DNA from: Patescibacteria group bacterium | GTDB lineage: Bacteria; Patescibacteriota; Patescibacteriia; Magasanikbacterales; UBA922 | NCBI GenBank assembly: GCA_018823045.1 | Contig: JAHJIX010000017.1 | Span: 52,300-116,299, forward strand | DNA length: 64,000 bases | Direction: 5' to 3' | Shown here: positions 2,071-44,357 of the stretch, one piece after another | Position numbering within the stretch: the first letter of the stretch is position 1 | Layout: each line of letters opens with the position of its first letter | Position numbers and translations under genes: made by a program | Notes under the pieces: model-generated | Databases searched by the model: none | Seen by the model: only the letters and a program-made list of their open reading frames with translations | What the model was told of the DNA's origin: nothing

Positions 2071-2071
2071 A

Positions 2072-4095: not shown

Positions 4096-4130
4096 ATATC
4101 TTTTATTTACTATTATTTAAGATACGCTAT

Positions 4131-4149: not shown

Positions 4150-4232
4150 TGGTGTCAAGTGTGTACACTGAATAAAAACCTACAGAACAAATACTCTCAA
4201 TGTATTTTTGTTGCGGAACGTACATTAAACAC

Positions 4233-4250
4233 ATCATTGCGAGGTGGCGT
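4233..4250. repeat. Half-copy (one arm, CATCATTGCGAGGTGGCGT) of the nested-palindrome repeat family
   Basis: Matches the left arm of the 9212-9306 and 12500-12623 elements. No partner arm is present. Confidence 0.5.
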
Positions 4251-4296
4251 ATTACTCATGTATCAAAAAACAGCCCTATACAGGACTGTTTTTATA

Positions 4297-5445
4297 TTAT
4301 GCTACATGCACCGGAGAGAGATTGTGCATCGTATGCTCTTTTTTATACACTGAGATGATTTCTTCAATCACACGATCCCAGGTATATTCTTTTTCAATGA
4401 TTTTTTTGTATTGTTGTCCTTTTTTGTTCAACACGGCTTGTTCTGTTTGAAGTATTATATCAAGCAAACTTGTCAATTGCTTGATACTTCCTGCACGATA
4501 CAATGCTTCTTTATCTCCGAGTAAATACTCATGCTCCGGAATGTCTGACAATATCATAGGGAGACCATAACTCATCGCTTCAAGCACTACGATTGGTAAT
4601 CCTTCATTAAGTGAAGGGTGCACATAAAGTGATGCATGTGAGAATAATGTATAAAGATCGTTCCCGGATTGAAATCCAGTAAAGATAATACTCTTATCCT
4701 CTGCTGCCAAACGATGCAACTCCTGCACATAGGCATTCGTATGGTATCCATCTCCAACAATAACTAATTGCTTATCTTTTCCTGCCGTTCTTTTTCCCCA
4801 TGCTTTAATTAAATGATGCATTGCTTTATGTGGAATCAGACGACTCACTGCTAAAACATAATTACCTGATTGAATCTTATGTTTTGTAAGGACATCAGTT
4901 TCTTCTTTTTTTGTTGGAATATACACTGCATTTGGAATAAACACCGCATCAGTATCATACACATCACGAGCGTACTGTTGAATCGTTTTAGATACCGCAA
5001 TCGTCATATGTGGAAAATGACATGACGCCCACTCACCAACTTTAAGCATAGTGCGAGCAAACAATCCCCATTTTTCATGTTTTCTATCAATCGAATGGAA
5101 TGTTGAAATCACACGAATCTTTGGGGTAAATACACGAGGAATCCATGCTAAAAGTGATGGCCCAACTCCATGATAATGAATCACATCAACATGTTCTTTC
5201 ATTGCATGAATCGTTGACGTAAAGGTATGAGTCAAGGCATCTAAATGTTTTGTTCGAATACTTTTTGTAAAAATGGTACGGACACCATCAACTTCTGTCG
5301 TTTCTTTACCGGTATACCATAAACGGCTATACACAGTCACATCCATGCCTTCTTTTTTTAAACGCATAGCAAGATCGTGAACGTGTTTTTCAACGCCACC
5401 ATGTACAGCAGGAATACCCTTTTGTCCGATCATTGCAATACGCAT
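4297..5445 (-). CDS. Glycosyltransferase family 4 (GT-B fold, group 1)
   Basis: 382 aa. N-term MRIAMIGQKGIPAVHGGVEKHV; C-terminal domain has the EGLPIVVLEAMSYGLP motif (EX7E-like) typical of GT4 enzymes. Confidence 0.8.
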   Translation of the reverse strand: MRIAMIGQKGIPAVHGGVEKHVHDLAMRLKKEGMDVTVYSRLWYTGKETTEVDGVRTIFTKSIRTKHLDALTHTFTSTIHAMKEHVDVIHYHGVGPSLLAWIPRVFTPKIRVISTFHSIDRKHEKWGLFARTMLKVGEWASCHFPHMTIAVSKTIQQYARDVYDTDAVFIPNAVYIPTKKEETDVLTKHKIQSGNYVLAVSRLIPHKAMHHLIKAWGKRTAGKDKQLVIVGDGYHTNAYVQELHRLAAEDKSIIFTGFQSGNDLYTLFSHASLYVHPSLNEGLPIVVLEAMSYGLPMILSDIPEHEYLLGDKEALYRAGSIKQLTSLLDIILQTEQAVLNKKGQQYKKIIEKEYTWDRVIEEIISVYKKEHTMHNLSPVHVA

Positions 5446-5560
5446 AAAGGATGTTAGTAGTAAATAAAGTGAAATAATACTATGCTATATATAGCACATA
5501 TATATCTATATAACAATAGACTATAACACAACATAATGCTTTTGTCAAGTACTAAAAAGC

Positions 5561-5590
5561 AAAAAACAGCTAACCTTAGCTGTTTTTTGC
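5561..5590 (-). terminator. Bidirectional intrinsic terminator (hairpin AACAGCTAACCTTAGCTGTT flanked by A-run/T-run)
   Basis: Perfect 8-bp stem with U-run on both strands, ~95 nt downstream of the hicB stop. Confidence 0.55.
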
Positions 5591-5685
5591 ATATATTCTT
5601 TATATTATTTCAATCCAGCAGCACGTAAAATGCTTTTTAATGTTCCAATTGGGACATCTTTTGTTTTGCTGTTAAACGAGATGTT

Positions 5686-5919
5686 TTAGGCATACGCCAC
5701 ATCAAGAGAAGAAATAAAACTATTTTCATCACTTATAATCTCTTCTTCATGCTCTTCAACGCTTTCTAAATATAATTTAATAGCATCAGCAGCCATTTCT
5801 CTTGCTTCTTCTAAACTTTTACCATATGTAATACACCCAGGTAAAGCTGGTACTTGTACCGTAAATCCTCCCTCAGGTTCTGGACGAAAAATTAAATTGT
5901 AGTGTAATGTTTTTTTCAT
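5686..5919 (-). CDS. hicB: HicB-family antitoxin (UPF0150), type II TA system
   Basis: 77 aa. FRPEPEGGFTVQVPALPGCITYGKSLEEAREMAADAIKLYLESV matches the HicB N-terminal RNase-H-like fold signature. Confidence 0.75.
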   Translation of the reverse strand: MKKTLHYNLIFRPEPEGGFTVQVPALPGCITYGKSLEEAREMAADAIKLYLESVEEHEEEIISDENSFISSLDVAYA

Positions 5920-6008
5920 ATATATTATTAACGTTATGCAACCATATCTAATACAGCATATATATAGTTAGTATAGCAAAATAACATCAAAAGTCAATGA
6001 AATAATCA

Positions 6009-8003
6009 CTAAATTCCACTACTCAAGCCAATAATATCGTCTTTCCCATCAAAATCAACATCAACCGCTCTTACATCGATTCCCTCTTTTAAAAAGCTCT
6101 CATAGGCCACAAATGGCCCAGAAATACGTGTCCCATCTATACTAAATACGGAAATTTCTGGTTTTTTTCCTTTTCCTGCTCCAACAATAATTTCATCCCA
6201 TCCATCACCATCAACATCTCCTGCAGCTACGTTTATCCCACCAGTATAGCTCGCTTCATAGGGCAACCAGGTATGCTCTAACGTATATGGACGATAGGTA
6301 TATACATGTACTTTCGGAGCGTACCCCACTCCCCCAGCAATCACTAAACGATTATTTTTAACAAAGCTCTTGTTTTTAGCGACTGCCAAAGAGTAGCCAC
6401 CAGTATACCCTTCTCCAAATGGATACCAATCTCTATGTTTTTGTATACCATCATAGGTATAAATACGAATAGGTAGAGTGTCCCCCGCCCCTGGAGTTGC
6501 ATAAACTTCCATATGCCGGTCTTTATTGACGTCTGCAACATGAAACGTTACTTCTCCCTCATAATATGGAAATGGATATTTTCTTTTCATCATCGGACGC
6601 CCATCATGCTTATACGCTCGAAAACTATTTTTTGTTGCCACAAAATAATCCCGCTTTCCATCTCCATTTAAATCAATATAGGCAATACGGTCTCCCCCAC
6701 GTTCTTTTTCATCAAAAATAAAGAACCCATTTCGTACACGAGAACCATCTGGCCGAAAAAACCGAACAAAACTCCCATTTGGGAAAATAATATCTTTTAA
6801 GGTATCAAATGTTTTTAAGAGTATACGACTATCATAATAATTTAAAAATATTTCAGAAACAATATCACCACTATTTGCAAGCGGATCTTGCGTGCCATGA
6901 ATTAACTCATACTCTCCATCAAGCTCTACATGTTGTTTTTGATTGGTACTGTTTAATACCACAAGCCCATTTTCAAATGGACGTGTCCAAATGTCATAGA
7001 CATATTCTTTTACACCACTTTTAGAACTGGAGTCATCAATTGGTGCACCTAAATCAATATCATACTCATCATACCACCACGTTTGGCCATGATCTTGATC
7101 GCCGTGGTCAAAAGATGAATAGGCATTTTCAAGCAATGCGCTCCCTAAACCAAAACGCATTTGCTGATAATTATATTGATTACCTGTATTATGTGTGTTG
7201 GTATTTAATATGGTTATGTATGGCTGATCATTTTGCTTCTGATTTTTTACCAGATTATTCATAATAGTAGGCCAGGTACCATTTCCTTCCCATGGTGTCG
7301 GGAATGTTTCAAACATACGTCCATTCACATATGGCTGAAGCGCATCATGAGAAGAACCATTCATGACAATGTATCGTGTATCTAATTGTTCTTGTGCGTA
7401 TTTTAAAAAGAATGTTGTTCGTTTTAACCATTCATTATCAATCGTCAAAGCACTATCTCTTTGCCCATTTTCATCTAAATCAATATCACCATTATTTGCC
7501 CAAGAAATATTATGAGAAACCATATCAAAAAAGACCCCATCCATATCGATTTTTTCTATCATGTAGGTATTAATAAACCCAACAAGATAGCGTGACCAAT
7601 CTTCACTCATATTTATTCCTTTAAGACTTGGCCAAATATATATAGGAGACCCAGCACTACTGCGCAACCACCAATTCTCTTGCACTGTTAAATACCGAAA
7701 TATAGGATCTTGCCCCCAATACGCAGTATTATAACTTTGTATTGGAATATACGCCAAAATAATAATTTCTCTATTTTTTGCTCGAATTTGTGCAACAACA
7801 GACGGATGTGCCTTCATTTGTGCCGGCGTTAAAATAAGCAAATCATATTTTGCCATTTTTGTCGTAAATGATGGTGATGACTGCAATTCATCTAAGTAAT
7901 AATTCGCAATCAAGGGATGATCATCTGATACAGCCTTTGCAGTACTCCCCCAAAGAAAGCACAAAGCAATACTGATAACAGAAATAATTATTTTTTTATA
8001 CAT
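6009..8003 (-). CDS. Secreted protein: N-terminal TIM-barrel glycoside-hydrolase-like domain fused to C-terminal FG-GAP/VCBS-type repeats
   Basis: 664 aa. Signal peptide (MYKKIIISVISIALCFLWGSTAKA). The N-terminal region resembles putative glycosyl-hydrolase-like (GHL/GH114-type) domains. The C-terminus has repeated DxDGDGxxD loops (DLNGDGKRDYFVA, DVDGDGWDEIIVGAG, DVDFDGKDDIIG) typical of FG-GAP beta-propeller blades. Confidence 0.5.
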   Translation of the reverse strand: MYKKIIISVISIALCFLWGSTAKAVSDDHPLIANYYLDELQSSPSFTTKMAKYDLLILTPAQMKAHPSVVAQIRAKNREIIILAYIPIQSYNTAYWGQDPIFRYLTVQENWWLRSSAGSPIYIWPSLKGINMSEDWSRYLVGFINTYMIEKIDMDGVFFDMVSHNISWANNGDIDLDENGQRDSALTIDNEWLKRTTFFLKYAQEQLDTRYIVMNGSSHDALQPYVNGRMFETFPTPWEGNGTWPTIMNNLVKNQKQNDQPYITILNTNTHNTGNQYNYQQMRFGLGSALLENAYSSFDHGDQDHGQTWWYDEYDIDLGAPIDDSSSKSGVKEYVYDIWTRPFENGLVVLNSTNQKQHVELDGEYELIHGTQDPLANSGDIVSEIFLNYYDSRILLKTFDTLKDIIFPNGSFVRFFRPDGSRVRNGFFIFDEKERGGDRIAYIDLNGDGKRDYFVATKNSFRAYKHDGRPMMKRKYPFPYYEGEVTFHVADVNKDRHMEVYATPGAGDTLPIRIYTYDGIQKHRDWYPFGEGYTGGYSLAVAKNKSFVKNNRLVIAGGVGYAPKVHVYTYRPYTLEHTWLPYEASYTGGINVAAGDVDGDGWDEIIVGAGKGKKPEISVFSIDGTRISGPFVAYESFLKEGIDVRAVDVDFDGKDDIIGLSSGI

Positions 8004-27701: not shown

Positions 27702-28154
27702 TTGTATATGCCTACTCTTGCCAAAAACAAAAAAGCATTTTTTGACTATACGATCCTCGAGAAATTTGAGGCGGGTTTAGTATTGACCGGGCAAGAAGTA
27801 AAATCGCTACGTACAGGCAATATTCGCCTTACTGGGGCCTATGTGACTTTTCACAAAGATAGCCCACAATTAACCAATGTACATATTCCACTGTATAAAT
27901 ACGCAAGCCCAAAAGAAGAATACGATCCTGAACGATCACGGGCGCTCTTATTAAAGAAAAAAGAAATAGCTTATTTAAGAGGAAAAACACAAGAAAAAGG
28001 CTTGACAATAGTGCCACTTTCAGTATATACTAAAGGACGAAAAATAAAGATAGAAATCGGTATTGCTCAAGGAAAAAAACAATACGACAAACGACGTGCA
28101 ATCCAAAAAAGAGATCAGCAACGAGAAGATCGACGAATGATGAAAGAAATGTAA
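27702..28154 (+). CDS. smpB: SsrA-binding protein SmpB
   Basis: 150 aa. KKAFFDYTILEKFEAGLVLTGQEVKSLRTGNIRLTGAYV matches SmpB (NRKARHDY…E-EAGI-L-GTEVKSLR). Confidence 0.85.
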   Translation: MYMPTLAKNKKAFFDYTILEKFEAGLVLTGQEVKSLRTGNIRLTGAYVTFHKDSPQLTNVHIPLYKYASPKEEYDPERSRALLLKKKEIAYLRGKTQEKGLTIVPLSVYTKGRKIKIEIGIAQGKKQYDKRRAIQKRDQQREDRRMMKEM

Positions 28155-28342: not shown

Positions 28343-28760
28343 GGGGATGACAGGCTTCGATAGACGGCAACGTTATCTATGTATGCATACCAAGAGTGTC
28401 ATCTCTTGTAAATCAATGACAAATCGATACGTGTAAACGTTATCAGTCGAGTAAAAGGCGCTATTGCTAACGCATTTAGCATGCCACAACTCGCATCTGT
28501 TGTTGCCTAAATAAGGCTAAACGACCATCGCCATGAAGATACTCGCTATTCATATCCGCGGTGTCAACCATACAGAGTTCGTCTCTGTGAGCGAGCGTAG
28601 AATATATGTGCTGACTGACGCGTATATTTGAACTTCCATCAGTATGTAGTGTGTTTCTTTTTGATATTTTTAAAAAAGCACATGAACCAACAAAATATCT
28701 ATGTATGTAGAGTACCTAGCTAACCCGATCTAGACCCGGGTTCAATTCCCGGCATCTCCA
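28343..28760 (+). ncRNA. ssrA: tmRNA (ssrA)
   Basis: 5' end GGGGAUGACAGGCUUCGAUAGACGG matches the tmRNA 5' consensus (GGGGxUGA…GGxUUCGA…ACGG). 3' end GACCCGGGUUCAAUUCCCGGCAUCUCCA has a T-arm and an acceptor 3' strand complementary to the 5' GGGGAUG, with the G3·U pair. It lies immediately downstream of smpB. A candidate tag frame ends …GCA UCU GUU GUU GCC UAA-A-UAA (28496-28512). Confidence 0.75.
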
Positions 28761-28785
28761 CGAAAAATGGCGCTAGCTATTTTTC

Positions 28786-29002: not shown

Positions 29003-29260
29003 ATGTATATTATCTATTTTCTAGAGTCTATCCAAGATAATACAAGACATTATATTGGATATACAACAAATCTAACACAACGCATAAAAACACATAACAA
29101 CGGTTCTGTTTCTTCAACAAAAAGATATAGACCCTGGAAAATAATCTATGCAGAAGCATATATACACCAACAAGATGCACGTGGAAGAGAAAAATTCCTT
29201 AAAAGTGGATCTGGATGGAAATACTTAAAAAAACAGCTAACACATCACTTTAACACTTAG
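29003..29260 (+). CDS. GIY-YIG nuclease family protein (second small YhbQ-like paralog)
   Basis: 85 aa. MYIIYFLESIQDNTRHYIGYTTNLTQRIKTHN (GIY…YIG, R, E/H). Strong SD AAGGAGG 8 nt upstream. Confidence 0.7.
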   Translation: MYIIYFLESIQDNTRHYIGYTTNLTQRIKTHNNGSVSSTKRYRPWKIIYAEAYIHQQDARGREKFLKSGSGWKYLKKQLTHHFNT

Positions 29261-30684: not shown

Positions 30685-30935
30685 ATGTTCGCACATGAGC
30701 AGGAGCACCCCCTCCTTTGCTCCTTTGCTCTGTGTGAACATCATGTTGATCAATACAATCAAACAAAGGTCTCGAGAATGTTCGCACATGAGCAGGAGCA
30801 CCCCCTCCTTTGCTCCTTTGCTCTGTGTGAACATTCTCGAGATCTATAACAATAAATGCCCACTGTATGTTCGTACATGAGCAGGAGCACCCCCTCCTTT
30901 GCTCCTTTGCTCTGTACGAACATACAGTGGGTTTT
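30685..30935 (+). repeat. Three tandem copies of a 57-bp hairpin-forming element (ATGTTCGCACATGAGCAGGAGCACCCCCTCCTTTGCTCCTTTGCTCTGTGTGAACAT). The third is extended and followed by T7, acting as the rplT operon terminator.
   Basis: Copies at 30685-30741, 30778-30834, 30867-30923, with spacers of 36 and 32 bp bounded by TCTCGAGA. The last copy sits in the stem CCCACTGTATGTTCG…CGAACATACAGTGGG + TTTTTTT. Confidence 0.8.
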
Positions 30936-31222: not shown

Positions 31223-31296
31223 GGATCGGTAGTTCAACTGGTTAGAGCACCGCCCTGTCACGGCGGAAGTTGCGGGTTCGAGTCCCGTCCGGTCCG
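31223..31296 (+). tRNA. tRNA-Asp (anticodon GUC)
   Basis: Cloverleaf: acceptor GGATCGG/CCGGTCC; D-arm GTTCAACTGGTTAGAGC; anticodon loop CTGTCAC; T-arm GCGGGTTCGAGTCCCGT; discriminator G. CCA is not encoded. Confidence 0.85.
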
Positions 31297-32847
31297 CTCA
31301 ACGGAAGGCAAAGCACCCGAAAGGGTGTTTTTTGCTTTTGTTAAGCTATTTTCTGAAGTTCTAAAGCTTGTATTACGTTTCATTATCATTTCGAACGGTT
31401 TTCTATACTCTATAACTAATTTCTTATCGATAAGCTGACAGTTCGAAAGTAAATATCCAAGTAGCTCCCTTTTCTCTTCATCATTAGCCATACGGTATAA
31501 TTTAGAAGCCTTATGAGCTAATTCTAATATACCTGAACCATAACGATAATAATCAATATCAGCTTGCGTATAATTTGAAATACGACTATCTAAATCTGTT
31601 ACCTGCTCCGTATACTCATTAAATTTTCTATTATAAAAATCCTCAGTAATATTATTATCTAACTTATCCTCATAAAGTCTATCGAGACGTGTCATTAGTT
31701 TTATCTTTCTATCCTCTAATCGTTTACGTTCTCTATCCGTTGTATCACGTTTAATATCCAATGAATCTTTTAATGCTTCGGTAATATAGTCAACGGTATC
31801 TTTTGGCAATTCAATATCTTTTAATGCTTGCTCTATCTGCTCGTTAATAGCATTCTCATTAACTGGCTTTTGTGAACACTCACTCTTATATTTTGTACAA
31901 CGATAATAAACATACTCCTTACCTGAACTCTTTGTTTTCTTATCTCCCGTAACAGTTCTATGACACTCTCCACACTCAAGTAACCCTTTAAATGTAAAGT
32001 GCCTAGTCCCCCATTTGGCTTGCTTTCCTCTATTTTCTCGACTATCCAGTATATCTTGTACATTCTTCCATAATACTTTATTGATAATCGGCTCATGTAC
32101 TCCTACATGAATTTTATCTTTCCAAATGAAATCACCGTAATAAATAGGATTACGTAAAATCCTTTGAACAGAGCTTTTACTTATTTTTTTTAGTTTAGAG
32201 CTTCTCGGAAAATTTTCAGGTATAACAATACCCTCCTTATACAATTCATCAATAAGACTCTTCAAAGAATATCTACCAGTAGCAAATCTCTCAAACATAG
32301 CTATTACTAAATCTCTATTCAATTCATCTACTACAGGACCCGCCTTATCGGCTATCTTCCCCATCTTGTAACCTAACGGGGGCATACTACAAGGATATAT
32401 TCCCTGCTCTGCTTTTTGTTTGAGTCCTTTCTTTACTTCTTCACTCAAATTATCTACATAGTTTTTTGCCATCAAGACCTTAATTCCATGCATGAACTTT
32501 TGATGAGAAGAGGCTTCTTTTCCAATAACTTCATTTTCTTTAACCAAAAAAACCGTAACATCAAGCTCGTCTATCAAAACGTAATCTTTAAAGTTACGGT
32601 ATAGTCTATCCGTCTTTTCGACAAGAATTGTATTTACATCTTTGTGTGACTTTACATAGTCCACCATTGCCCCAAAATTGCTCCTACCGGAACTTTTAGC
32701 CGTCTCATCGTCCTCAAACTCCTGTACTATACTAAAGCCATTCTGACGTGCAAATTCTTTAAGTAACTTCCTCTGAGCAGGTATTGAATACCCCTCTTGT
32801 TTTTGTTCACGAGAAGATACACGTACGTAAATGACGGCTTTTTTCAT
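31258..32847 (-). CDS. Large serine recombinase (resolvase domain + recombinase domain + zinc ribbon)
   Basis: 529 aa. Begins [12 protein letters not shown]…GYSIPAQ (catalytic Ser motif) and has a Cys-rich zinc ribbon (CGECHRTV…[11 protein letters not shown]). The ORF's last ~13 codons overlap tRNA-Asp (31258-31296), so the real stop may differ. Confidence 0.75.
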
Positions 32848-33023
32848 ACTTTAGTCTTCTCTAAAAAATCAGCAAAATCTTCTGTGGAAATCCTAAACTC
32901 CTTACCTAACTTATTAGCTTTTAGCTTACCCGCTTCTATATATCTATAAACTGTCATCTTTGAAATTCTTAATTTGCTTGCTATTTCTTCAACTAAATAA
33001 AAATCTTTATCTATTTCTTTCAT
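32844..33023 (-). CDS. Small helix-turn-helix DNA-binding protein (excisionase/AlpA-like), overlapping recombinase start by 4 nt
   Basis: Manual translation: [59 protein letters not shown] (59 aa). HTH is EIASKLRISKMTVYRYIEAG. Below the ORF-track size cut-off. Confidence 0.55.
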   Translation of the reverse strand: MKEIDKDFYLVEEIASKLRISKMTVYRYIEAGKLKANKLGKEFRISTEDFADFLEKTKV

Positions 33024-33031
33024 AAACTAAA

Positions 33032-33955
33032 TTAAGTAGATAAAACTTTCTCAATTTTTTTTGCTATAGCTCGTATTACAGGTACAGCAACACTATTCCC
33101 AAATTGTTTATAACACTGTACATTACTAACAGTTAATACAAAATCTTTGGGAAATCCTTGTAGTCGAGAAGCTTCTCTTGGAGTAATCTTTCGAGGATTT
33201 TTATTTTTTTGTCTAATCAAAATTTCAGAACCATCTTTATAATACCTAGCTGACATAGTACTTGTATATGCAGAATTGGCATCAAATAGACTATATCCAA
33301 ATCCATTACCCTTTAATTTATGAGCTTCCTTTCTTCTTTTATGACCTGCCCACAATTTATCTGATATTGTATATTTTTCATCAACTTTTTCTTCTAAAAT
33401 ATCTCCTAATTTAACTTTTTTGTATGAAGGAGTTGGAAAAACAAATTCGTTATAATTTTTTACTTTCTTTTTATTAAATGCAATTATATATATTCTCTCT
33501 CTATTTTGAGGTACACCGAAGTCTTTAGCATTAAATATCTTATCAAAAACATGATAATCTAGTTTTTCTAAACTTTCTTTTACTATCTTAAAGGTATTCC
33601 CCTTATCATGTGATTTAAACCCTTTAACATTTTCTAAAAAAACTAGCTCAGGTTTATGATAAGCAATTATTTTTTCAATATAAAAAAACAATGTCCCTCT
33701 AGTATCTTGAAAGCCCTTTTTAAGACCAGCATTAGAAAAAGGCTGACAAGGAAATCCCGCAAGAATTATATTATGTTTAGGTATATCAGCAACCTTAATT
33801 TTAGTTATATCTCCATCGGGACACTCACCAAAGTTATCTTTATATGTTTGTTGAGAAAACTTATCCCACTCAGAAGTAAATACACAGTTATAACCAATTT
33901 CATCAAATGGAATTCTAATTCCACCAATGCCTGCAAATAAATCAATAAATTTCAT
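33032..33955 (-). CDS. DNA (cytosine-5)-methyltransferase
   Basis: Motif I DLFAGIGG, motif IV GFPCQPFS, motif VI ENVKG, motif VIII QNRERIYII. The start is taken at the Met of MKFIDLFAGIGG (the ORF-track frame extends to 34012). Confidence 0.8.
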   Translation of the reverse strand: MKFIDLFAGIGGIRIPFDEIGYNCVFTSEWDKFSQQTYKDNFGECPDGDITKIKVADIPKHNIILAGFPCQPFSNAGLKKGFQDTRGTLFFYIEKIIAYHKPELVFLENVKGFKSHDKGNTFKIVKESLEKLDYHVFDKIFNAKDFGVPQNRERIYIIAFNKKKVKNYNEFVFPTPSYKKVKLGDILEEKVDEKYTISDKLWAGHKRRKEAHKLKGNGFGYSLFDANSAYTSTMSARYYKDGSEILIRQKNKNPRKITPREASRLQGFPKDFVLTVSNVQCYKQFGNSVAVPVIRAIAKKIEKVLST

Positions 33956-33959
33956 ATTT

Positions 33960-34847
33960 TTATTTCCAATAATCAAGATATTTAGGAATTTCTTCAAAGA
34001 AATATTCTTCAAAACTAATTATATTTTTGCAGTCCAACAAACTGTCACTATCTGCCAATTCTTTTGAAGTCACAATAACTATATTATGCATACCCATTTC
34101 TTTTGCTTTACTACCCGCAATATGAGTATCAACCGTTAATAAATGAATTTCAGGTATTTTTGTACGTTCAATTTCTTCTGCTACTTCCTGCCATCTTTCT
34201 CTAAGACTTGTTTTCATCGTCCCTATAATAGTTTTGTTTCTTCTTCGCTTGAATTCTTCTATACTTGGTAAAACAGAATCAACTTTTTTACCAAGTCCCA
34301 CAGACTCAAACACCTTTCTTCCAACTTTTCCTTGAGAATCAAATGGATAATCTAAAATATCATATATTTTATATATAATAGCTTCAAATGTTCTACCTGA
34401 CCTCGATCTTCGTGAATTAGTATTACTTAAAGAAAGCATATATACATATGGAGCAACTCGTCCAGCATATTCTCCACATACACTATAGATAGCAACCTTT
34501 AATTCTTCACCCGTCTTATTAACAATCTCACTAGTAACTAAAAAGTCTAAAATTTTCTTAGGTGTTTCAATTCTTTTATGTAAATCCTTTAAAAGTGTTG
34601 CATTAAACTCTGCCTCCTCTTTCAAAAATAAATTATAAGCACGCTCTCTTACCTCTAATATTACCTTAGACACATCTTTATGCTCTATGATCTCTTTTGA
34701 ATAATTACCTTCATCAAAAACCTGAGCAACAAATTCATCAGATGTTCTTATAGATTCTTTTCTTGTCTTTTTTATTAAATTAGCAAATATTTCCTTCTCT
34801 GATTCAGGAACATCAATCAAACTCCTAATATCCTTATTTACATCCAT
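33960..34847 (-). CDS. Putative type II restriction endonuclease partner of the m5C MTase
   Basis: 295-aa ORF immediately upstream and co-directional with the MTase (gap of a few nt). No recognisable family motif by eye. The call rests on the R-M context only. Confidence 0.4.
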   Translation of the reverse strand: MDVNKDIRSLIDVPESEKEIFANLIKKTRKESIRTSDEFVAQVFDEGNYSKEIIEHKDVSKVILEVRERAYNLFLKEEAEFNATLLKDLHKRIETPKKILDFLVTSEIVNKTGEELKVAIYSVCGEYAGRVAPYVYMLSLSNTNSRRSRSGRTFEAIIYKIYDILDYPFDSQGKVGRKVFESVGLGKKVDSVLPSIEEFKRRRNKTIIGTMKTSLRERWQEVAEEIERTKIPEIHLLTVDTHIAGSKAKEMGMHNIVIVTSKELADSDSLLDCKNIISFEEYFFEEIPKYLDYWK

Positions 34848-34927
34848 ACTTATATTTATAAAACTTATTGATACAATATTATAATATCTACTATATCATA
34901 CTTTACAATGGTTAACAATTAGTCCTA

Positions 34928-36016
34928 TCAATCCATCCTTTGAGCTACAAATTTTAAGAGCTCTTCCTTACTCAAAGAAGCAACATTTACTCTAGTAAGG
35001 TTATTAAATGAAATTTCTTGTATTATTCTTGCCTGTTTTAGTGAGTCAATATGTCCATACCCATAACTTCCAAAAGTGGTACCAACATTTTCATGACCCA
35101 AATTTTGACTAAAAGCTTTCTTTTGTATTTCAGTAAGTGGTAATTTAGATATTTCACTCACCAACAAATTTCTAAAGGTATGAGGATGAAAATATGTTAC
35201 TCCTGCCTGCTTAAATCGCTTTTCAAATATCTTTCTCAAAGAAGTAGTACTCTTCCAAAACGTAGCTTCCACTTCCCCATTACTATAAAATCCTAAATTT
35301 TTTTTACCTACTTCTGTTTTTGTTGCAGGGAAAATAGGATCAACAGGTTTAAAACCTTTCTGCACCTCAAGATATTCTACCCATTCCATAAAATACTTTT
35401 GTGCTTTTTTGTATGGAATAGGTACAAAAACGGAAGTTATCCTTTTACTGAACTTTGTTTTTACACCCAACTTAGGATTTTGATCGATAATCATAGTCTT
35501 TTTATCAAAACACTGCAAAGACAAACTAGCTAATGCTGAGATACGTATCCCCGTTAATAAATTAAGAGAAATAAGTGCTTTATCTCGCATTTCAACTTCT
35601 GTATTACCCTCAATATGCTCTATCACCGTTTTTACTTGATCAATTGATGGAAAACTAGTATTAGTGCTTTGTGTAGCTATTCTATTTTCTGCCTTTGTGA
35701 GATTAAGATATTCTACATCTTGCTCATGTACCTTTGATTTATATCCATCTTGTTTAGACAACCACACAAAAAAAGATTTCAAATATCTTATATTATTATA
35801 GCAATAAGATAAACTCACATTACCTTCACCATGTTTCTTTTTTTTTGATTTCAACCAACTTTTGAAATCAATAGCTTTTTGTTTATTAAATAAAGCAAAA
35901 TCATCTTGAACTGAGAACTCTTCCCAAAGCCAAATTCCTTTCTCATAACATCTAATCGATTTTGTTGAATACTGCTTTGCATTTTCAAGATATACATAAA
36001 AACTTCTTATTGTCAA
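34928..36016 (-). CDS. Tyrosine-type site-specific recombinase/integrase
   Basis: 362 aa. Box I R (ALISLNLLTGIRISALASL), HxxR (HPHTFRNLLVS) and the catalytic Tyr region (GHENVGTTFGSYGY). Confidence 0.75.
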   Translation of the reverse strand: MTIRSFYVYLENAKQYSTKSIRCYEKGIWLWEEFSVQDDFALFNKQKAIDFKSWLKSKKKKHGEGNVSLSYCYNNIRYLKSFFVWLSKQDGYKSKVHEQDVEYLNLTKAENRIATQSTNTSFPSIDQVKTVIEHIEGNTEVEMRDKALISLNLLTGIRISALASLSLQCFDKKTMIIDQNPKLGVKTKFSKRITSVFVPIPYKKAQKYFMEWVEYLEVQKGFKPVDPIFPATKTEVGKKNLGFYSNGEVEATFWKSTTSLRKIFEKRFKQAGVTYFHPHTFRNLLVSEISKLPLTEIQKKAFSQNLGHENVGTTFGSYGYGHIDSLKQARIIQEISFNNLTRVNVASLSKEELLKFVAQRMD

Positions 36017-36093: not shown

Positions 36094-36432
36094 ATGGCTA
36101 CAATAACAATGAAACTAGAACCAAAGCCTTTTGATGCTATAAAATCTAAAAAAAAACAAATTGAACTACGCCTATACGATGATAAAAGAAAAAACATTAA
36201 TATTGGAGACATTATTGAATTTAAAAGAGAACCTGAACGAACAATATCCATTAAAACGCGGGTTGTCGCACTACTCAGATATGAAAATTTCTCAAAATTA
36301 TTTGAAGACTTTGAACCTAGTATATTTGGAGGAAATAATAAGCAAGAATTACTTGATGGTGTTACACGATTTTATTCAAAAGAAAAACAAAATGAATACG
36401 GCATACTAGGCATAAAAATAGAATTACTCTAA
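36094..36432 (+). CDS. ASCH (PUA-like) domain protein
   Basis: 112 aa. MKLEPKPFDAIKSKKKQIELRLYDDKRKNINIGDIIEF is an ASCH beta-barrel signature. Confidence 0.5.
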   Translation: MATITMKLEPKPFDAIKSKKKQIELRLYDDKRKNINIGDIIEFKREPERTISIKTRVVALLRYENFSKLFEDFEPSIFGGNNKQELLDGVTRFYSKEKQNEYGILGIKIELL

Positions 36433-36493
36433 AAAAAGAAAAAAGGGGTCCGATGAAAGACCTCTTTTAATTTATCTGGGAAGAATCCCCGCG

Positions 36494-36844
36494 CTATACA
36501 ACCTCTTCAAGTTGAAACACCAGAACTCCTAACCTCTCCTTGTTTGGTGGAAAAATCTTCCTTATGTTACGCAACTGTTGCTCCGCACTACGATACGGGT
36601 TTATTTTTTGTACATCCTCGTTAGCCAACATCTCTCTAAAGTTGTTGTACTTGCTCACACGCACGACGCGTCTATCGCAAGAACGCTGTTTACAAAGGAA
36701 GCGTACAGTATCCCCTCTCTGAATGCGCAGCAAACTACTGTATGCGACACGAACCTCCACAGTTTTTGTTCCTTCGACGATCATGTCAAAGTATTGTTTA
36801 TAGATCTGGAGAGTCCGGATCCGTTTTTTTTTCGCCATTTTCAC
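36494..36844 (-). CDS. ASCH (PUA-like) domain protein
   Basis: 116 aa. IYKQYFDMIVEGTKTVEVRVAYSSLLRIQRGDTVRF. Confidence 0.5.
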   Translation of the reverse strand: MKMAKKKRIRTLQIYKQYFDMIVEGTKTVEVRVAYSSLLRIQRGDTVRFLCKQRSCDRRVVRVSKYNNFREMLANEDVQKINPYRSAEQQLRNIRKIFPPNKERLGVLVFQLEEVV

Positions 36845-37935
36845 TCTTCCTTTCGATAGGCTTCAAGAAGCCTCATTATCTCGGTGTAGGTATAACATCT
36901 GAACATGTGCCTCGGATGACTCAAAAACTGTTGAACCAACCAAATCATCTTTGACACATAGTCAGGATGTTCTTCACGGAATTTACTCATATCTAAGAGC
37001 CAATTAGGCACATCAAACATACTACCATCATTATCTCTTATGAGAGATTTAGATAACTTAGCTCCTGTCCCCGTAATGACCTGAGGAGTAAAAAACCTCA
37101 TTGGTGTATTGACTGAGGTATAACCTAATGCACCAAGTGCCCAATCAACGGGCTGTGTGCTCATAGTCCAGTCCCCGCCTTTTACCATAACACCAAGTGT
37201 ACCATTTTCTTGACTGTAAACAGCCTCTTTTATTACATTCCTATATAATGTATTCAAATCAAGATAGGTACCATCATCACCATCGACAGAAACCATTTTT
37301 TCATAAAATCTTCCATCTCTAGCACGACACCTAAACAATACCTTGTCTTTCCCTGTATAAATAATTTTTGTATGCTCCCCCCTTTTTTGAGCATAAAAAT
37401 CATCATCAGAGTTAGGTAATCGCACTCTCAAAATACCATTTGAAGGTGCTACACACCAACGGATAACTTCTTGAAATTGCAAAGACTTGATGAATTGATA
37501 GCGAAATGAAGGCATACTTTGCTGATCTTTATAAGTAGACCAACTATATGAGATACCCACAATTTTTGCTAATTCATCAAAAAAATCTAAATAGTGCACA
37601 GATAATAAATCATGTAATTCCAAAGAGGATAATACATGACCATAGGCGCGCTGGAATTCGGTACCATCCTTCCCTTGTGTAATATCATAAGGAGCATTAT
37701 CAAGTGCTCCAAAGCAAACCTCACAAGGGATATCAAACTTTTCTTGGATCATTCCGGCGAGTACAAAACTTGTCGTCTGGACGAGATATGTACCAATGTG
37801 CGGGATACCATTAATCTGAGTACCCACTGAAAATACTACGCGCTCAGGATTTGAAATAGCAATACGAGCACCAATGAGATCAATTGCACAGTTCAAGCTA
37901 TTAGCCAAAACGGTATTTGGAGAGTGGATGAGCAT
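36841..37935 (-). CDS. Class I aminoacyl-tRNA-synthetase-like protein, catalytic domain only (HIGH-like PHIGT and KMSKS-like KLSKS motifs)
   Basis: 364 aa. GTQINGIPHIGTYLV near the N-terminus and TGTGAKLSKSLIRDNDG ~240 aa later. This spacing is typical of class I LysRS (LysK)/GluQRS-type Rossmann domains. No anticodon-binding domain. Confidence 0.45.
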   Translation of the reverse strand: MLIHSPNTVLANSLNCAIDLIGARIAISNPERVVFSVGTQINGIPHIGTYLVQTTSFVLAGMIQEKFDIPCEVCFGALDNAPYDITQGKDGTEFQRAYGHVLSSLELHDLLSVHYLDFFDELAKIVGISYSWSTYKDQQSMPSFRYQFIKSLQFQEVIRWCVAPSNGILRVRLPNSDDDFYAQKRGEHTKIIYTGKDKVLFRCRARDGRFYEKMVSVDGDDGTYLDLNTLYRNVIKEAVYSQENGTLGVMVKGGDWTMSTQPVDWALGALGYTSVNTPMRFFTPQVITGTGAKLSKSLIRDNDGSMFDVPNWLLDMSKFREEHPDYVSKMIWLVQQFLSHPRHMFRCYTYTEIMRLLEAYRKEE

Positions 37936-38318: not shown

Positions 38319-38690
38319 ATGAACAGCAAACTCAAAACATTTTTTATGGTCATTGGAATTATTTCTACCATTGCCCTCATTATTATCATTATTGTTATTT
38401 TTGGTGTCTATAATATTATTAAAAACATGACAGGATCATATACAACAGCACCAATAAATACAGATGGAGTAAACACAGAAGAAGTCTACGATCACCCAGC
38501 ATTGTCTGAAGATCAAGAACAAACACTAGATAAACTTGGTATTGATGTCTCAACACTTCCAACAAGTATTACTCCTGAACAACAAGCCTGTGCTGTTGAA
38601 AAACTTGGACAAGACCGAGTTCTTGAAATAGTTGGCGGCGCATCACCTAGTGCTATAGAATTAGTAAAAGCAGGATCTTGTTTTAAATAA
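38319..38690 (+). CDS. Small membrane-anchored hypothetical protein
   Basis: 123 aa. N-terminal TM (FFMVIGIISTIALIIIIIVIFGV). C-terminal soluble domain with two Cys. Confidence 0.4.
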   Translation: MNSKLKTFFMVIGIISTIALIIIIIVIFGVYNIIKNMTGSYTTAPINTDGVNTEEVYDHPALSEDQEQTLDKLGIDVSTLPTSITPEQQACAVEKLGQDRVLEIVGGASPSAIELVKAGSCFK

Positions 38691-38755: not shown

Positions 38756-40153
38756 TTAAAACAACTTATCAATTAATACCAAACCACTAAAAAATCCAAA
38801 GAATAAGAAAATACCGATCATGACAATCTTTCTCCACCAACGTGGACGGTATGCCTTTGGTAATAGTTTGTGATTGACAACAAAGACCAACCCGACATGA
38901 ACAAACATGGCAAATGCATTAATAACAGCGGCTAAGACAAGAAGAGTCTTTGGCTCATAAATATTAAATAAAAACAAGAGAATGCCAAATCCAATTTGCG
39001 CCCACAAAAAAATATAATATAATTTGCTTAGGTTCACCGTTTCTTTTTTATCATGTTCTACTTGCTTGATTGCAACATTTTCTGCCATAATTCGAGAGGT
39101 TGAGTCCATAACCCCTAATTGTGTCTGAAATAACATAACTCCAACAACAAATAAAAAGCTGACACCTACCGCAGGGAATAATTGCGATCCAATAGCAGCC
39201 CCTTCATAGATAACAAACAGAATGCCCTCTTCTGTGCCTGTGGAGCCGTATACAGTAACATAAGCCAACAACATGAGCAAACACATAGACAAGAGCCCTA
39301 CAAACCAAAATATAAGTCCATGCTCAATACTAATCATCTTCCACCACTGATTAAATCGTGCACGATGTTCTTTATTGTCGACAAAAGAAGTCCCTGTCAA
39401 CTTAATCTTTTGAGCACCATCTTTACTTGCAAAAAGACCAGCTATCTTTTGGGCGTACTTCCCCATGCCATAGCCTTTTTCTTTTACGTAAATTGATTGG
39501 GTTAAATTTAAATTACCAGCAGCACCAGAATACGCAAATGCAGCCAAAAATGTCGCAAATGATATTCCCGCTGGGAAAAATGTATATCCCTCACCTTTAC
39601 CCATTAATCCTTGAAATAAGGTCCCCCAGTCACTTGATTGACTTAATACAATTGTAAGAACAAATACAAAAGGAACACCTATTAAAATAATCGTACGAGT
39701 AAGCCCCTCCATAAGGGTATAGACTGTTTTCCCAACAGAAAGAATAATACCAATCAATAGTAAAAAGATAATCGCAATCCACTTAAATTGTTCTACGCCT
39801 ATAATTGAACCAAATACTTGGGCAGAAGCCGCAATAATACCAGGTAAACCAAAACCGATAAATGTAGAAAAAATAAACCAATACACTGCTTTTGGAAAAA
39901 TTTTAGCAATACCAACAAAAACGCTCTCCCCTTTTACTAAGGCATAGCGCTCAATTTCCATGTTAATAAAATATTGAAATGTAATCCCTAAAAATGCTCC
40001 CCAGGCTATCCCTAAGCCATAATTTGATACCATATACGGCCAAAGGATGACTTCTCCTGACCCGAGCCCTAAAGCCAAAATAATAAAACTAGGACCAATA
40101 AGTTGTTTAAAGGGAACCGGTTTTGGAAATACTTTTTTTGATTGTTTTTTCAT
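38756..40153 (-). CDS. Polytopic membrane transporter, Nramp/APC-superfamily-like (putative divalent-metal transporter)
   Basis: 465 aa, ~11 TM helices. N-terminal LIGPSFIILALGLGSGEVILWPY resembles the Nramp GPGxL…DPGN region. Confidence 0.4.
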   Translation of the reverse strand: MKKQSKKVFPKPVPFKQLIGPSFIILALGLGSGEVILWPYMVSNYGLGIAWGAFLGITFQYFINMEIERYALVKGESVFVGIAKIFPKAVYWFIFSTFIGFGLPGIIAASAQVFGSIIGVEQFKWIAIIFLLLIGIILSVGKTVYTLMEGLTRTIILIGVPFVFVLTIVLSQSSDWGTLFQGLMGKGEGYTFFPAGISFATFLAAFAYSGAAGNLNLTQSIYVKEKGYGMGKYAQKIAGLFASKDGAQKIKLTGTSFVDNKEHRARFNQWWKMISIEHGLIFWFVGLLSMCLLMLLAYVTVYGSTGTEEGILFVIYEGAAIGSQLFPAVGVSFLFVVGVMLFQTQLGVMDSTSRIMAENVAIKQVEHDKKETVNLSKLYYIFLWAQIGFGILLFLFNIYEPKTLLVLAAVINAFAMFVHVGLVFVVNHKLLPKAYRPRWWRKIVMIGIFLFFGFFSGLVLIDKLF

Positions 40154-41178: not shown

Positions 41179-44100
41179 TTATTTTTCTTTTGCTAAGTCA
41201 TTAGCATCACAAACCTGCCAAGCATCTGGTACATCACAAGGAGTTGCAAATGCCTGACAACTACCCTCTTCATTCTTTCGCGCATAGGTAACCATTTGTA
41301 CACAAACTCGCTTTTCACGCACATCCCAATGATTCCACGCATATGACTCATCTTCCAAAAAGACAATGGTATCCAAGATCTCTTGCAAATGCTCCCCATT
41401 TCCATTTATTTCTATTATTTTTTCTTCATCAATCGGAATTTCAATAATAGTCATAGTTTGTTTATTTACCCCGTCTCCAATAACCTCTTCAAAACGCCAG
41501 GCTTTCTTTTCTCCTACCAGTACCGTTGTTTTATTTTTTTGGTCAATCGGGTGATCTACCAGTTGTAAAAAGAGACTAACATACTCTTCGCTCGATCTGT
41601 CTTCAAAAACGACCCCATTTGGCCAACGCGTTGTTGCCCAAGTACTCGGAAAACTCAATGTTAAATTCGCAAATGTTTTATCTTCAAATACAGATACACG
41701 ATTAGCAAATTCTTCTTCTTTTTTCTGTGTTGTTTTTTCTACAGTACGCTCCCGAATTGCCGCAGGTGAAATATAATTATCAGTATGTACAGCAATATCT
41801 TGTGTTGGACTAACACATCCTGCGCCAACTGATAATATTCCTGCAGCAAGCAAACCAAATGCAACAACTAACCCTAAAAATGGCTTATTCGTCTTTTTCC
41901 CTTTTTTCCCTAATGTCTTTTCAAGAGCCGCTATTTGTGTTTTTGTTTCAATTACTTTGTCTGGATTAATCGAAATACTATCAATCCCCTGTTTCACGAT
42001 CCACTCCGCAAACTCAGGAGAATCACTCGGTGCTTGCCCACAAATACCAATCTTTTTCTTATGTTTATGTGCTACTTTAATAACTGACTGAATCAATTTT
42101 TTTACGGTTTCATCTTGTTCATCATAAATATGGCTCACTAAGGCCGAATCTCGGTCAATACCTAAAGCAAGTTGAGTCAAATCATTTGAACCAATACTAA
42201 ATCCATCAAATATCTGTGCAAAATCTTCTGCTAAAATAACATTTGATGGAATTTCACACATCACATACACCTGCAAGCCATTTTCTCCTTGTTTCAAGCC
42301 AAAAGACTCCATGGTTTTTAGCACTTTTCTTCCTTCTTCTGGTGTTCGACAAAATGGAATCATGACAATCACATTTGTTAATCCCCAATCTTCTCGTACT
42401 TTTTTAATTGCCGCACACTCAAGTCCAAATGCTTCTTTGTATTCTTTTGAATAATATCTACTTGCACCACGCCAACCAATCATTGGATTTTCTTCTTTTG
42501 GTTCAAATTCTTTTCCACCAATTAATGTCGCATATTCATTTGTTTTAAAATCACTTAAACGAATAATCACGGGCTTATCGTAAGCGGCAACAGCAATACG
42601 TGCAATACCTTCTGCTAATTTATTAACACAATAATCTGATTTTTTCTTATACCCTCGTGTCATGTCTGAAATCAATTTTTTTGCCTTTTTATCTTTTAGT
42701 GTTTTATAGTGAATCAATGCAAGTGGATGAATTCGGATAAAATGAGAAAAAATAAATTCTTCTCGTGCAAGACCAATACCATCATGTGGCAAAAAGGATA
42801 ATGCAAACGCATTGTCAGGGTCTCCAATATTCATCATGATTTTTGTCTTTGTTTTTGGCAACACTTTTACTTCGGTCTTTTTTACCTCAAAAGAAAGCGC
42901 CCCTTTGTAAATCATACCAACATCTCCTTCTGCACATGATACTGTCACTGCTTGACCATTTTTACATATCTTTCGCGCATCAGCAGCCCCCACAATACAT
43001 GGAACACCAAGTTCACGTGATACAATTGCAGCATGGCTTGTTTTTCCACCTTGCTCAGTAACAATGGCTGAAGCCATACGCATAATTGGCTCCCAATCAG
43101 GATCAGTAATACGCGTTACCAATACCTCCCCTTTTTTAAATTGTTTCATCTCTGTAGGAGTTTGAATAATTCTCACTTTTCCAACTCCAATCTTTTGCCC
43201 AACAGCAACACCCCGCAATAATTCTTTCCCGACTGTTTTGAGCTGATATTGTTCAATAATCGTTTTACTTCCTTGAGATTTTACTGTTTCAGGTCGAGCT
43301 TGAACAATATAAAGTTTTCCACTCTCCCCGTCTTTTGCCCATTCAATATCTTGCGCCTTACCATAATGTTCTTCAATCAACATTCCCCATGTTGTCAATG
43401 TTGTTAAATCTTCTTGTGAAATAGAAAACGTATCTCTTTTTGCTTTTGGTACCGTTGCCTGTTTTGTTCCTCCATTTTTTCCATATATCAACTTCACATC
43501 TTTTGTTCCTAAAATGCTACTGATCACAGCTTTTTTTCCTTTTTTTACTCCTGCTTTAAATACATAAAATTGATCTGGCGTTACACGGCCTTTCACTATA
43601 TATTCTCCTAAACCATAACTCGAATTAATAAGTGTGACACCCTCAAAACCAGATTCTGTATCAACAGTAAACATCACTCCGCTACTCCCCATATCTGAAC
43701 GAACCATGATTTGAACCGTAACGGACAAAGCCACATGATGATGTTGAAATCCTTTTGTTTCTCTGTATGAAATTGCACGATCAGTAAAGAGTGACGCTAT
43801 ACATTTTTTTGTTGCCAAAAGCAATGCTTTTTCTCCAACAACATTTAAATACGTTTCTTGCTGCCCTGCAAAACTCGCATCTGGCAAATCCTCGGCTGTG
43901 GCACTTGATCTTACTGCTACAGCAATATTTTTCGTACTACCTAAACGCTTATATGCATGTACAATAGCTTGCTCAATTTCTTTTGGAATATCAGCCGCTA
44001 AAATAAGTGCTCGAATTTTTTTTCCTGTTTTTTCTAACGCTGCAATATCATGAACATCTAAACCACTGAGTATTTTTTTAATCTGTTTATCTAACCCTGT

Positions 44101-44286
44101 TGTACGCAAAAATTGCCAATACGCATCGGCAGTCATGGCAAAACCATTTGGAACATTTACTCCTTTTTTCGTCAAATGACGATACATTTCTCCTAAACTG
44201 GCGTTTTTTCCACCAACAATAGGGACATCTTGTATAGAAATATCCTCAAACCAGCGAACAAATTGTGTTTGCTTTACTCCTTTCAT
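41179..44286 (-). CDS. ppsA: Phosphoenolpyruvate synthase (pyruvate, water dikinase) with a ~250-aa C-terminal TM + unknown-domain extension
   Basis: FVRWFEDISIQDVPIVGGKNASLGEM N-terminus (ATP-grasp). Phospho-His domain (GGKTSHAAIVSRELGVPCIVG). PEP-utilising TIM barrel. The frame continues into KPFLGLVVAFGLLAAGILSVGAGC… and a Cys-containing C-terminal domain. The start is set at the Met preceding KGVKQTQF. Confidence 0.8.
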   Translation of the reverse strand: MKGVKQTQFVRWFEDISIQDVPIVGGKNASLGEMYRHLTKKGVNVPNGFAMTADAYWQFLRTTGLDKQIKKILSGLDVHDIAALEKTGKKIRALILAADIPKEIEQAIVHAYKRLGSTKNIAVAVRSSATAEDLPDASFAGQQETYLNVVGEKALLLATKKCIASLFTDRAISYRETKGFQHHHVALSVTVQIMVRSDMGSSGVMFTVDTESGFEGVTLINSSYGLGEYIVKGRVTPDQFYVFKAGVKKGKKAVISSILGTKDVKLIYGKNGGTKQATVPKAKRDTFSISQEDLTTLTTWGMLIEEHYGKAQDIEWAKDGESGKLYIVQARPETVKSQGSKTIIEQYQLKTVGKELLRGVAVGQKIGVGKVRIIQTPTEMKQFKKGEVLVTRITDPDWEPIMRMASAIVTEQGGKTSHAAIVSRELGVPCIVGAADARKICKNGQAVTVSCAEGDVGMIYKGALSFEVKKTEVKVLPKTKTKIMMNIGDPDNAFALSFLPHDGIGLAREEFIFSHFIRIHPLALIHYKTLKDKKAKKLISDMTRGYKKKSDYCVNKLAEGIARIAVAAYDKPVIIRLSDFKTNEYATLIGGKEFEPKEENPMIGWRGASRYYSKEYKEAFGLECAAIKKVREDWGLTNVIVMIPFCRTPEEGRKVLKTMESFGLKQGENGLQVYVMCEIPSNVILAEDFAQIFDGFSIGSNDLTQLALGIDRDSALVSHIYDEQDETVKKLIQSVIKVAHKHKKKIGICGQAPSDSPEFAEWIVKQGIDSISINPDKVIETKTQIAALEKTLGKKGKKTNKPFLGLVVAFGLLAAGILSVGAGCVSPTQDIAVHTDNYISPAAIRERTVEKTTQKKEEEFANRVSVFEDKTFANLTLSFPSTWATTRWPNGVVFEDRSSEEYVSLFLQLVDHPIDQKNKTTVLVGEKKAWRFEEVIGDGVNKQTMTIIEIPIDEEKIIEINGNGEHLQEILDTIVFLEDESYAWNHWDVREKRVCVQMVTYARKNEEGSCQAFATPCDVPDAWQVCDANDLAKEK

Positions 44287-44357
44287 ATATATTGAGTATA
44301 TCATGAATATATGAAGAAAACAATGAACTATACACAAAAAAACCTCTGTGAATTTGA

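Follow-up and report, generated by a model that had tools for sequence, protein, structure and literature searches.

What does the catalytic core of a class-I aminoacyl-tRNA synthetase (aaRS) do when it ends before any anticodon-binding domain and is encoded together with a small ASCH protein? This question is raised by a gene of a Patescibacteria group bacterium (lineage Magasanikbacterales, UBA922; assembly GCA_018823045.1), located in a stretch of 64,000 nucleotides of contig JAHJIX010000017.1 (positions 52,300 to 116,299 of the forward strand), which was analysed as a whole and is called the window below. The gene product, a class-I aaRS-like protein of the 'HUP' type predicted to be an adenylate-forming ligase, is referred to here as the ligase. 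An earlier note on this DNA had described it as an orphan aaRS-like domain accompanied by two ASCH genes, had placed it inside a mobile element next to a tRNA-Asp gene and had considered a GluQRS-like architecture. The main value of the locus is the conserved, uncharacterised unit formed by the ligase and ASCH.

The ligase gene corresponds to an exact open reading frame (ORF) whose ATG is preceded at 6-7 nt by the ribosome-binding site AAGGGAA. An identical protein (P0001, Patescibacteria group bacterium, NCBI) is annotated with 355 aa, as its start was set 9 codons further into the gene than the ATG at 37935. The longer ORF is considered correct because of this ribosome-binding site and of an N-terminal SPNTVLAN block that is found family-wide. 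The HIGH motif is represented by P45-H-I-G-T49 (family consensus PH[IL]GT), the KMSKS motif by G291-A-K-L-S-K-S297, with K293-L-S-K-S297 as its core, and a third ATP-site motif by G253-G-D255-W256 (family form GxDW). Conservation of these residues was counted over 294 aligned family members, the denominators being the non-gap positions. H46 was kept in 291/291, G48 in 290/291, the D255-W256 pair in 290/290, K293 in 289/290 and K296 in 290/290, and T49 was kept in 284 members. An acidic pair that follows strand 2 (D/E79-N80) is invariant. The near-invariance of the HIGH, GxDW and KMSKS residues indicates that the motifs are under selection and not fortuitous. Among the remaining ORFs of 250 aa or more in the window, none had both the HIGH and the KMSKS motif.

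The ligase belongs to a compact family. Among 5.8 billion clustered proteins, 592 homologues were retrieved (E<=1e-3), ranging from Patescibacteria proteins of ~360 aa (59% identical) to actinobacterial proteins of 480-500 aa (42-45% identical). With a family profile, 1.84 billion representative proteins yielded only 429 cluster representatives at the same threshold; the family, which comprises roughly 430 clusters at 50% identity and occurs in ~450 species, therefore does not grade into the canonical aaRS families. Scanning of the window ligase against Pfam gave nothing beyond a sub-threshold DUF5358 match and no aaRS model, and NCBIfam gave no match; the family has neither a Pfam nor an NCBIfam model. 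In the profile check against Pfam that the earlier note had proposed, no aaRS family matched the window ligase; its motifs are nonetheless conserved. No aaRS was retrieved when all PDB sequences were searched with phmmer and with the family profile (hmmsearch), and hhalign of the family against a Patescibacteria arginyl-tRNA synthetase (ArgRS) aligned the GxD...KMSKS region correctly, yet not significantly (E=0.24). The sole profile set that recognised the ligase was PHROGs (phrog_35625, annotated 'tRNA synthetase', E=4.7e-84).

The relationship to aaRS became visible at the level of the fold, where the catalytic domain described in the earlier note was confirmed. The AlphaFold2 (AF2) model of the ligase, generated from a 42-sequence alignment, had a pLDDT of 93.2 and a pTM of 0.91 and contains a nucleotide-binding fold of the Rossmann type that can be superposed on the cores of class-I aaRS. 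Foldseek comparison of this model with the PDB ranked the class-I lysyl-tRNA synthetase (LysRS) 1IRX first (E=1e-8), followed by GluRS, ArgRS, BshC, GlnRS and MetRS, and sequence identity to any aaRS is ~10-14%. An insertion of the connective-peptide (CP) type is located at about residues 82-228. Inside this CP1-type insertion, ~95% of the family members possess a zinc knuckle (CxxC...CxxH); in the window ligase and its closest relatives all four ligands are lost (C175N, C178D, C205A, H208G). Despite this loss the AF2 model is still confident over the corresponding region (residues 175-208). The C-terminus lies only 67 residues past KMSKS and consists of a short helical tail. Since the protein stops there, it has no anticodon-binding domain, as had been noted earlier, and the model depicts the ligase as a class-I aaRS catalytic core devoid of this domain.

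The top fold match suggests an obvious function, namely that of an auxiliary LysRS-I-like aaRS that charges a tRNA 3' end, with ASCH as a stand-in tRNA-binding domain. In addition to the match to class-I LysRS (LysK, 1IRX, PF01921) and the intact catalytic motifs, a homologue appears as 'Lysyl-tRNA synthetase, class I' in one source, phage annotators label the protein 'tRNA synthetase', and one distant member, P0203, was the only protein that matched PF01921 faintly (13.1 bits, E=0.044, cut-off 27). However, the window protein did not match PF01921 at E<=1, the identity to LysK is as low as to any other aaRS, and neither Pfam nor the PDB sequences gave a match even by family profile. The ligase lacks the C-terminal helical anticodon-binding domain of LysK, the place of which is taken by an ASCH domain or gene. 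Unlike LysK it is non-essential, and its distribution is sporadic, in genomes with full aaRS sets. Together with the failure of the 429 clusters to merge into canonical aaRS families, these differences make an auxiliary aaRS quite improbable. The ligase as the housekeeping LysRS or GluRS of the cell was rejected on distribution and architecture.

The second component of the unit is ASCH-B, encoded directly after the ligase on the same strand. Its start has two options, a GTG that overlaps the ligase stop by 4 nt (GTGA) or an ATG located 2 nt past the stop and preceded by GGAAGAG. The partner is obligate in the family. In a set of 91 loci, collected by a scan of 185,579 species genomes and by exact-protein look-ups (a few loci duplicate the same genome), ASCH-B was fused to the ligase or encoded immediately downstream in 88. 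In an alignment of fused and downstream ASCH domains, ASCH-B proved to be the orthologue of the ASCH domain at the C-terminus of the fused actinobacterial proteins; it is closest to PF0469 of P. furiosus (1XNE, E=3.9e-13). The link even extends to distant family members, which keep both the ligase motifs and the ASCH association. The isoelectric point (pI) of ASCH-B is 10.3 in the window, the median for fused ASCH domains is 9.1, and values of 9-10.3 prevail in most lineages; the ASCH proteins of the phage clade are acidic.

The family octapeptide GxKxxExR, which appears as GTKTVEVR (GKER type) in ASCH-B, is strongly conserved: lysine was found in 98/98, glutamate in 95/98 and arginine in 98/98 sequences. 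According to a 2026 preprint, the lysine and glutamate of this motif are essential to the hydrolysis of N4-acetylcytidine (ac4C) in GKER-type proteins (TthASCH, EOLA1, TRIP4), and each of 19 ASCH proteins assayed in vitro deacetylated the ac4C of tRNA (bioRxiv 10.64898/2026.02.27.708502). The window ASCH genes share PF04266 and the octapeptide with known ASCH amidohydrolases (YqfB, TthASCH, EOLA1; PF0469/PH0355) and have retained the catalytic Lys and Glu of N4-acylcytidine amidohydrolases, so that such an activity is predicted from their sequences. The known proteins are either stand-alone or fused to helix-turn-helix, helicase or ParB-type domains. Coupling to an aaRS-like protein was not found in the searchable literature, nor was any description of the ligase-ASCH family, including ASCH with synthetase, AAA_28 or phage as search terms.

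Both ASCH genes reported in the earlier note were recovered with significant PF04266 matches. The second, ASCH-C, is a convergent gene of the PH0355/PF0455 type with the octapeptide SKKKQIELR. Its identity is only 26% to ASCH-B and 51-52% to the convergent ASCH genes beside the ligase in loci L012 and L009, and the same layout, ligase followed by ASCH-B with a convergent ASCH-C, occurs in L009/L010/L056, L011 and L012. As its divergence matches that of the ligase, ASCH-C is regarded as a conserved third component that has been inherited together with the rest of the module in this clade of Patescibacteria. In other Patescibacteria (L003, L005, L006) an upstream YqfB-like ASCH gene of the GKTR type takes its place. 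Between the convergent ASCH genes a GC-rich hairpin with A- and T-run flanks is likely a bidirectional intrinsic terminator that closes both transcription units. The window module, comprising ligase, coupled ASCH-B and convergent ASCH-C, is the minimal form of the system.

On this basis we tentatively favour the view that the ligase is a catalytically competent member of an uncharacterised class-I aaRS-type family that works as one unit with ASCH on a nucleoside-type acceptor. In the first step, suggested by the fold and the invariant HIGH, GxDW and KMSKS residues, ATP and a carboxylic acid would be converted to an acyl-adenylate. In class-I enzymes, the acidic residue that ends strand 2 binds the alpha-ammonium group of the substrate. 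The invariant D/E79-N80 pair occupies this position, so the acid is probably an alpha-amino acid and the acyl group probably aminoacyl. In the second step, to which the obligate fusion or coupling points, a nucleoside-type acceptor bound in the ASCH pocket would receive the acyl group on an amine or hydroxyl. Because ASCH keeps the Lys/Glu pair of N4-acylcytidine amidohydrolases, it is predicted to deacylate either the acceptor or the product. It may unmask the acceptor amine ahead of ligation, in the manner of MshB before MshC and BshB before BshC, or it may reverse or proof-read the ligation product.

By analogy, the ligase is proposed to work like the aaRS-derived ligases MshC, BshC, GluQRS and TmcAL. 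BshC and MshC, which ligate cysteine in the synthesis of bacillithiol and mycothiol, are among its closest folds. They show no sequence-level relationship to it and differ in three respects: their partner hydrolase is an LmbE-type deacetylase instead of ASCH, their acceptor is an amino sugar whereas that of the ligase is predicted to be a nucleoside, and no thiol-pathway genes occur near the ligase. The acceptor would most likely be a free cytidine-like nucleoside, nucleotide or nucleoside-derived metabolite and not a tRNA 3' end destined for translation; that it is such a free small molecule is again a tentative assignment. A small molecule is favoured because of the kinase, phosphatase, NUDIX and decarboxylase genes that accompany the ligase, because the ligase (median pI 5.8) and the ASCH proteins of the phage clade are acidic, and because of the precedents of YqfB and EOLA1, which act on free ac4C.

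The gene neighbourhoods of the family illustrate these partners. Overall, the neighbours of the ligase are dominated by phosphotransfer, NUDIX and tailoring enzymes, and the distribution is sporadic and partly mobile. Relatives were found in ~450 of the 185,579 species genomes, mainly in Actinomycetota, in some Patescibacteria and in few Bacteroidota. Next to the fused forms of Actinomycetota and Bacteroidota, a gene for an AAA_28 P-loop kinase-like protein overlaps the ligase start in 67 loci and a 305-aa helical protein precedes in 62; neither is present in the window, and the AAA_28 protein has no sequence relative in the PDB. L011/L012 have translationally coupled HAD hydrolase genes, and NUDIX genes are recurrent in Patescibacteria and Bacteroidota. 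A Patescibacteria subclade (L013, L014, L078) has the ligase without ASCH, in a cluster with Peptidase_S66, His_Phos_1, an APH-family kinase, an S-adenosylmethionine-dependent methyltransferase and NUDIX; in L013, where the cluster spans 31-6974, the APH-family kinase gene overlaps the ligase start. This cluster also contains a 371-aa class-II paralogue restricted to the AsnRS/AspRS core, so that two truncated aaRS-like genes occur in one cluster.

Among the distant members, the ligase of locus L104 (2066-7594) is encoded in the order AlaDh_PNT, methyltransferase, methyltransferase-like, ligase, cryptic ASCH (GEKKYEYR), AdoMet_dc and an AlkZ-like gene. The pyruvoyl AdoMet_dc decarboxylase that adjoins the ligase there is of the type fused to it in P0203. 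Locus L106 (597-9239) comprises two PhyH dioxygenases, methyltransferases, a nucleotidyltransferase, the ligase, an outer-membrane efflux protein (OEP) and a nearby ASCH gene. In P0238 an apparent GDSL acylhydrolase is fused to a ligase fragment.

Several points weigh against a small-molecule acceptor. The strongly basic ASCH-B of most lineages and the in vitro deacetylation of tRNA by ASCH proteins are just as compatible with an RNA substrate. The sets of neighbours vary between lineages, some of the adjacency in compact Patescibacteria genomes may be fortuitous, and no kinase, phosphatase or NUDIX partner of the module is present in the window. Moreover, ASCH could be a pure binding domain, and the fusion of a ligase with a hydrolase that acts on the same type of bond could amount to a writer/eraser pair.

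A somewhat unlikely alternative is that the ligase is an RNA or tRNA base modifier like GluQRS or TmcAL, placing an acid on a base, for example on N4 of cytidine, with ASCH either as an RNA/cytidine reader that replaces the anticodon-binding domain or as the matching eraser. ASCH indeed sits at the C-terminal position that the anticodon-binding domain holds in class-I aaRS, and its high pI and the activity of ASCH proteins on tRNA speak in the same direction. GluQRS provides the precedent of an aaRS core without anticodon-binding domain that acts on an anticodon base. TmcAL, which makes ac4C34 in tRNA-Met, has an aaRS-like fold and uses an ATP-activated carboxylate to acylate N4 of cytidine, forming the type of bond that ASCH amidohydrolases cleave. 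The zinc knuckle kept in most family members also fits, as the zinc element of the CP1 insertion contacts the acceptor end in GluRS-type enzymes. In contrast, the ligase did not match the TmcAL-type Pfam models, TmcAL was not among its top 60 structural matches, and TmcAL is not coupled to ASCH. The sporadic distribution, the lack of any consistent linkage to tRNA genes, the acidic ASCH of the phage clade and the subclade that is entirely without ASCH also speak against a base modifier, and the conserved partners are kinases, phosphatases, NUDIX proteins and a decarboxylase and not RNA-modification enzymes. A narrower form of the writer reading, in which the ligase and ASCH would be writer and reader/eraser of a nucleoside modification for which no description was found, an amino acid such as lysine or another acid being attached with the use of ATP to the exocyclic N4 amine of cytidine in tRNA/RNA or in the nucleotide pool, is considered unlikely; ASCH would then either strip an N4-acyl group already present beforehand or erase the newly added one afterwards.

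The genomic setting of the module was compared with the claim that it resides inside a mobile element (Table 1). A recombinase/restriction-modification (R-M) island of ~4.8 kb (about 31258-36016) is integrated at tRNA-Asp and has a GC content of 26-33%, as against 35-45% for the ligase and ASCH-B genes; the two recombinases that it carries point to an element of composite or nested structure. Neither att-type or enclosing direct repeats nor a second copy of the tRNA-Asp 3' end was convincingly found around the island and the module. Furthermore, the same gene trio stands among ordinary genes with no recombinase nearby in L009/L010/L056, L011 and L012. Because of the GC contrast, the missing enclosing repeats and these recombinase-free copies, the module is a chromosomal neighbour of the island and not its cargo, and this part of the earlier note was abandoned.

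Table 1. Features of the ligase-ASCH module and of the adjacent island (positions in the window).
Feature	Position	Strand	Evidence
Class-I aaRS-like adenylate-forming ligase ('HUP' protein), 364 aa	36841..37935	-	exact ORF; motifs; predicted fold
ASCH-B, 114-116 aa, obligate ligase partner	36494..36844	-	Pfam PF04266 E=3.8e-11, 44.0 bits (cut-off 21.2)
ASCH-C, 112 aa, second, convergent ASCH gene	36094..36432	+	Pfam PF04266 E=4.6e-09, 37.3 bits (cut-off 21.2)
GC-rich hairpin between the convergent ASCH genes	36441..36468	.	terminator-like score on both strands
tRNA-Asp	31223-31297		Rfam scan
Large serine recombinase, its 3' end overlapping the tRNA-Asp 3' end	31258-32847		domain match
Dcm-type C5 cytosine methylase	33032-34012		domain match
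EcoRII-C-type restriction endonuclease	33960-34847		domain match
Tyrosine integrase	34928-36016		domain match

The association with tRNA-Asp did not hold either. This gene lies 5.5 kb away from the ligase gene, and in 48 related loci no recurrent tRNA and no credible tRNA-Asp was detected, the sole call being an 88-nt 'atc' prediction in L035. The adjacency in the window is a by-product of the integration site of the island. A GluQRS-type enzyme on a mobile element, functionally tied to the adjacent tRNA-Asp, is thereby largely refuted and barely plausible. The likeness to GluQRS (YadB, 4A91), an aaRS core repurposed to acylate a modified base, consists in the missing anticodon-binding domain and in the resemblance of KLSKS and the upstream P-x-(I/V) context to GluRS/GluQRS motifs, to which the tRNA-Asp in the window may be added. 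However, no profile match assigns the ligase to PF00749, and GluQRS ranks low among its fold matches. A GluQRS orthologue was rejected on fold ranking and the missing tRNA-Asp linkage.

A further possibility is that of a DNA-base hypermodification or conflict module (defence or anti-restriction). The ligase would add an amino-acid-type group and ASCH would read the base, while kinases and decarboxylases would tailor the modified base as in phage thymidine hypermodification pathways; both the module as such and this tailoring scheme appear improbable. The temperate Streptomyces phages Picard and Mojorita encode the ligase and ASCH next to their serine integrase. The pair also lies beside the integrase in Picard-like prophages, and chromosomal Streptomyces copies share Picard-like neighbours. 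One copy is carried by the 207-kb plasmid pKutB-C1 of Kutzneria buriramensis (L052), the L104 element carries TrwB, RadC and Dam besides its AlkZ-like glycosylase and decarboxylase, and the window module abuts the Dcm/EcoRII-type R-M island. In R-M contexts, modified DNA bases are recognised by PUA-like domains, ASCH among them (PMC7641849). Nevertheless, viral carriage was limited to 12 loci in 2.9 million viral contigs, most copies are chromosomal with ordinary neighbourhoods, and no nuclease, glycosylase or DNA-binding partner is conserved family-wide. In PADLOC-DB 2.0, neither the ligase nor its fused and phage versions nor the AAA_28 and 305-aa partners had a match; the only one was a marginal match of ASCH-B to PDC-M11B (E=1.2e-3). 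A known anti-phage defence system was rejected on the missing PADLOC match and the rare viral carriage. Two fused ligase-ASCH genes ~150 kb apart were observed in Actinomadura violacea (L083 and L084, NZ_JAGEPF010000018.1); these paired copies and the Kutzneria plasmid copy are consistent with recent mobility.

Other features of the window were recorded. Just upstream of tRNA-Asp, an 89-bp tandem repeat (30685-30923; 2.6 copies, 86% matches) without Rfam match yields repeated short ORFs on both strands; an Rfam scan of 28-39 kb found only tmRNA and tRNA-Asp. An SmpB-like ORF (27702-28154) lies directly upstream of the tmRNA gene (28343-28761, tag AIANAFSMPQLASVVA), and a small GIY-YIG protein is encoded at 29003-29260. 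Upstream of the ligase, a 465-aa polytopic membrane protein (38756-40153) and a 123-aa signal-anchored protein (38319-38690) have no Pfam match and are not conserved neighbours of the module elsewhere. The gene at 41179-44337 encodes an enzyme of the phosphoenolpyruvate (PEP)-synthase/pyruvate phosphate dikinase (PPDK) type with PPDK_N, mobile and PEP-utilizers_C domains and a C-terminal extension of ~250 aa that includes a hydrophobic segment, an unusual architecture.

The orphan aaRS paralogues decoded so far (GluQRS, MshC, BshC, TmcAL, PoxA, cyclodipeptide synthases) each revealed new chemistry. The present family is compact, has intact motifs but no Pfam or NCBIfam model, and is coupled to a domain that was recently shown to be an N4-acetylcytidine amidohydrolase. 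The pairing leads to a concrete and cheaply testable hypothesis on the identity of the activated acid and of its cytidine-type acceptor. Retention of the unit in genome-reduced Patescibacteria, together with its integrase adjacency in Streptomyces phages, suggests that selection can act on its role, be it in conflict or in the salvage or tailoring of nucleosides. If the reading as an N4-cytidine writer/eraser were true, the family would represent a new branch of aaRS-derived nucleic-acid chemistry in Actinomycetota, Patescibacteria and some of their phages.

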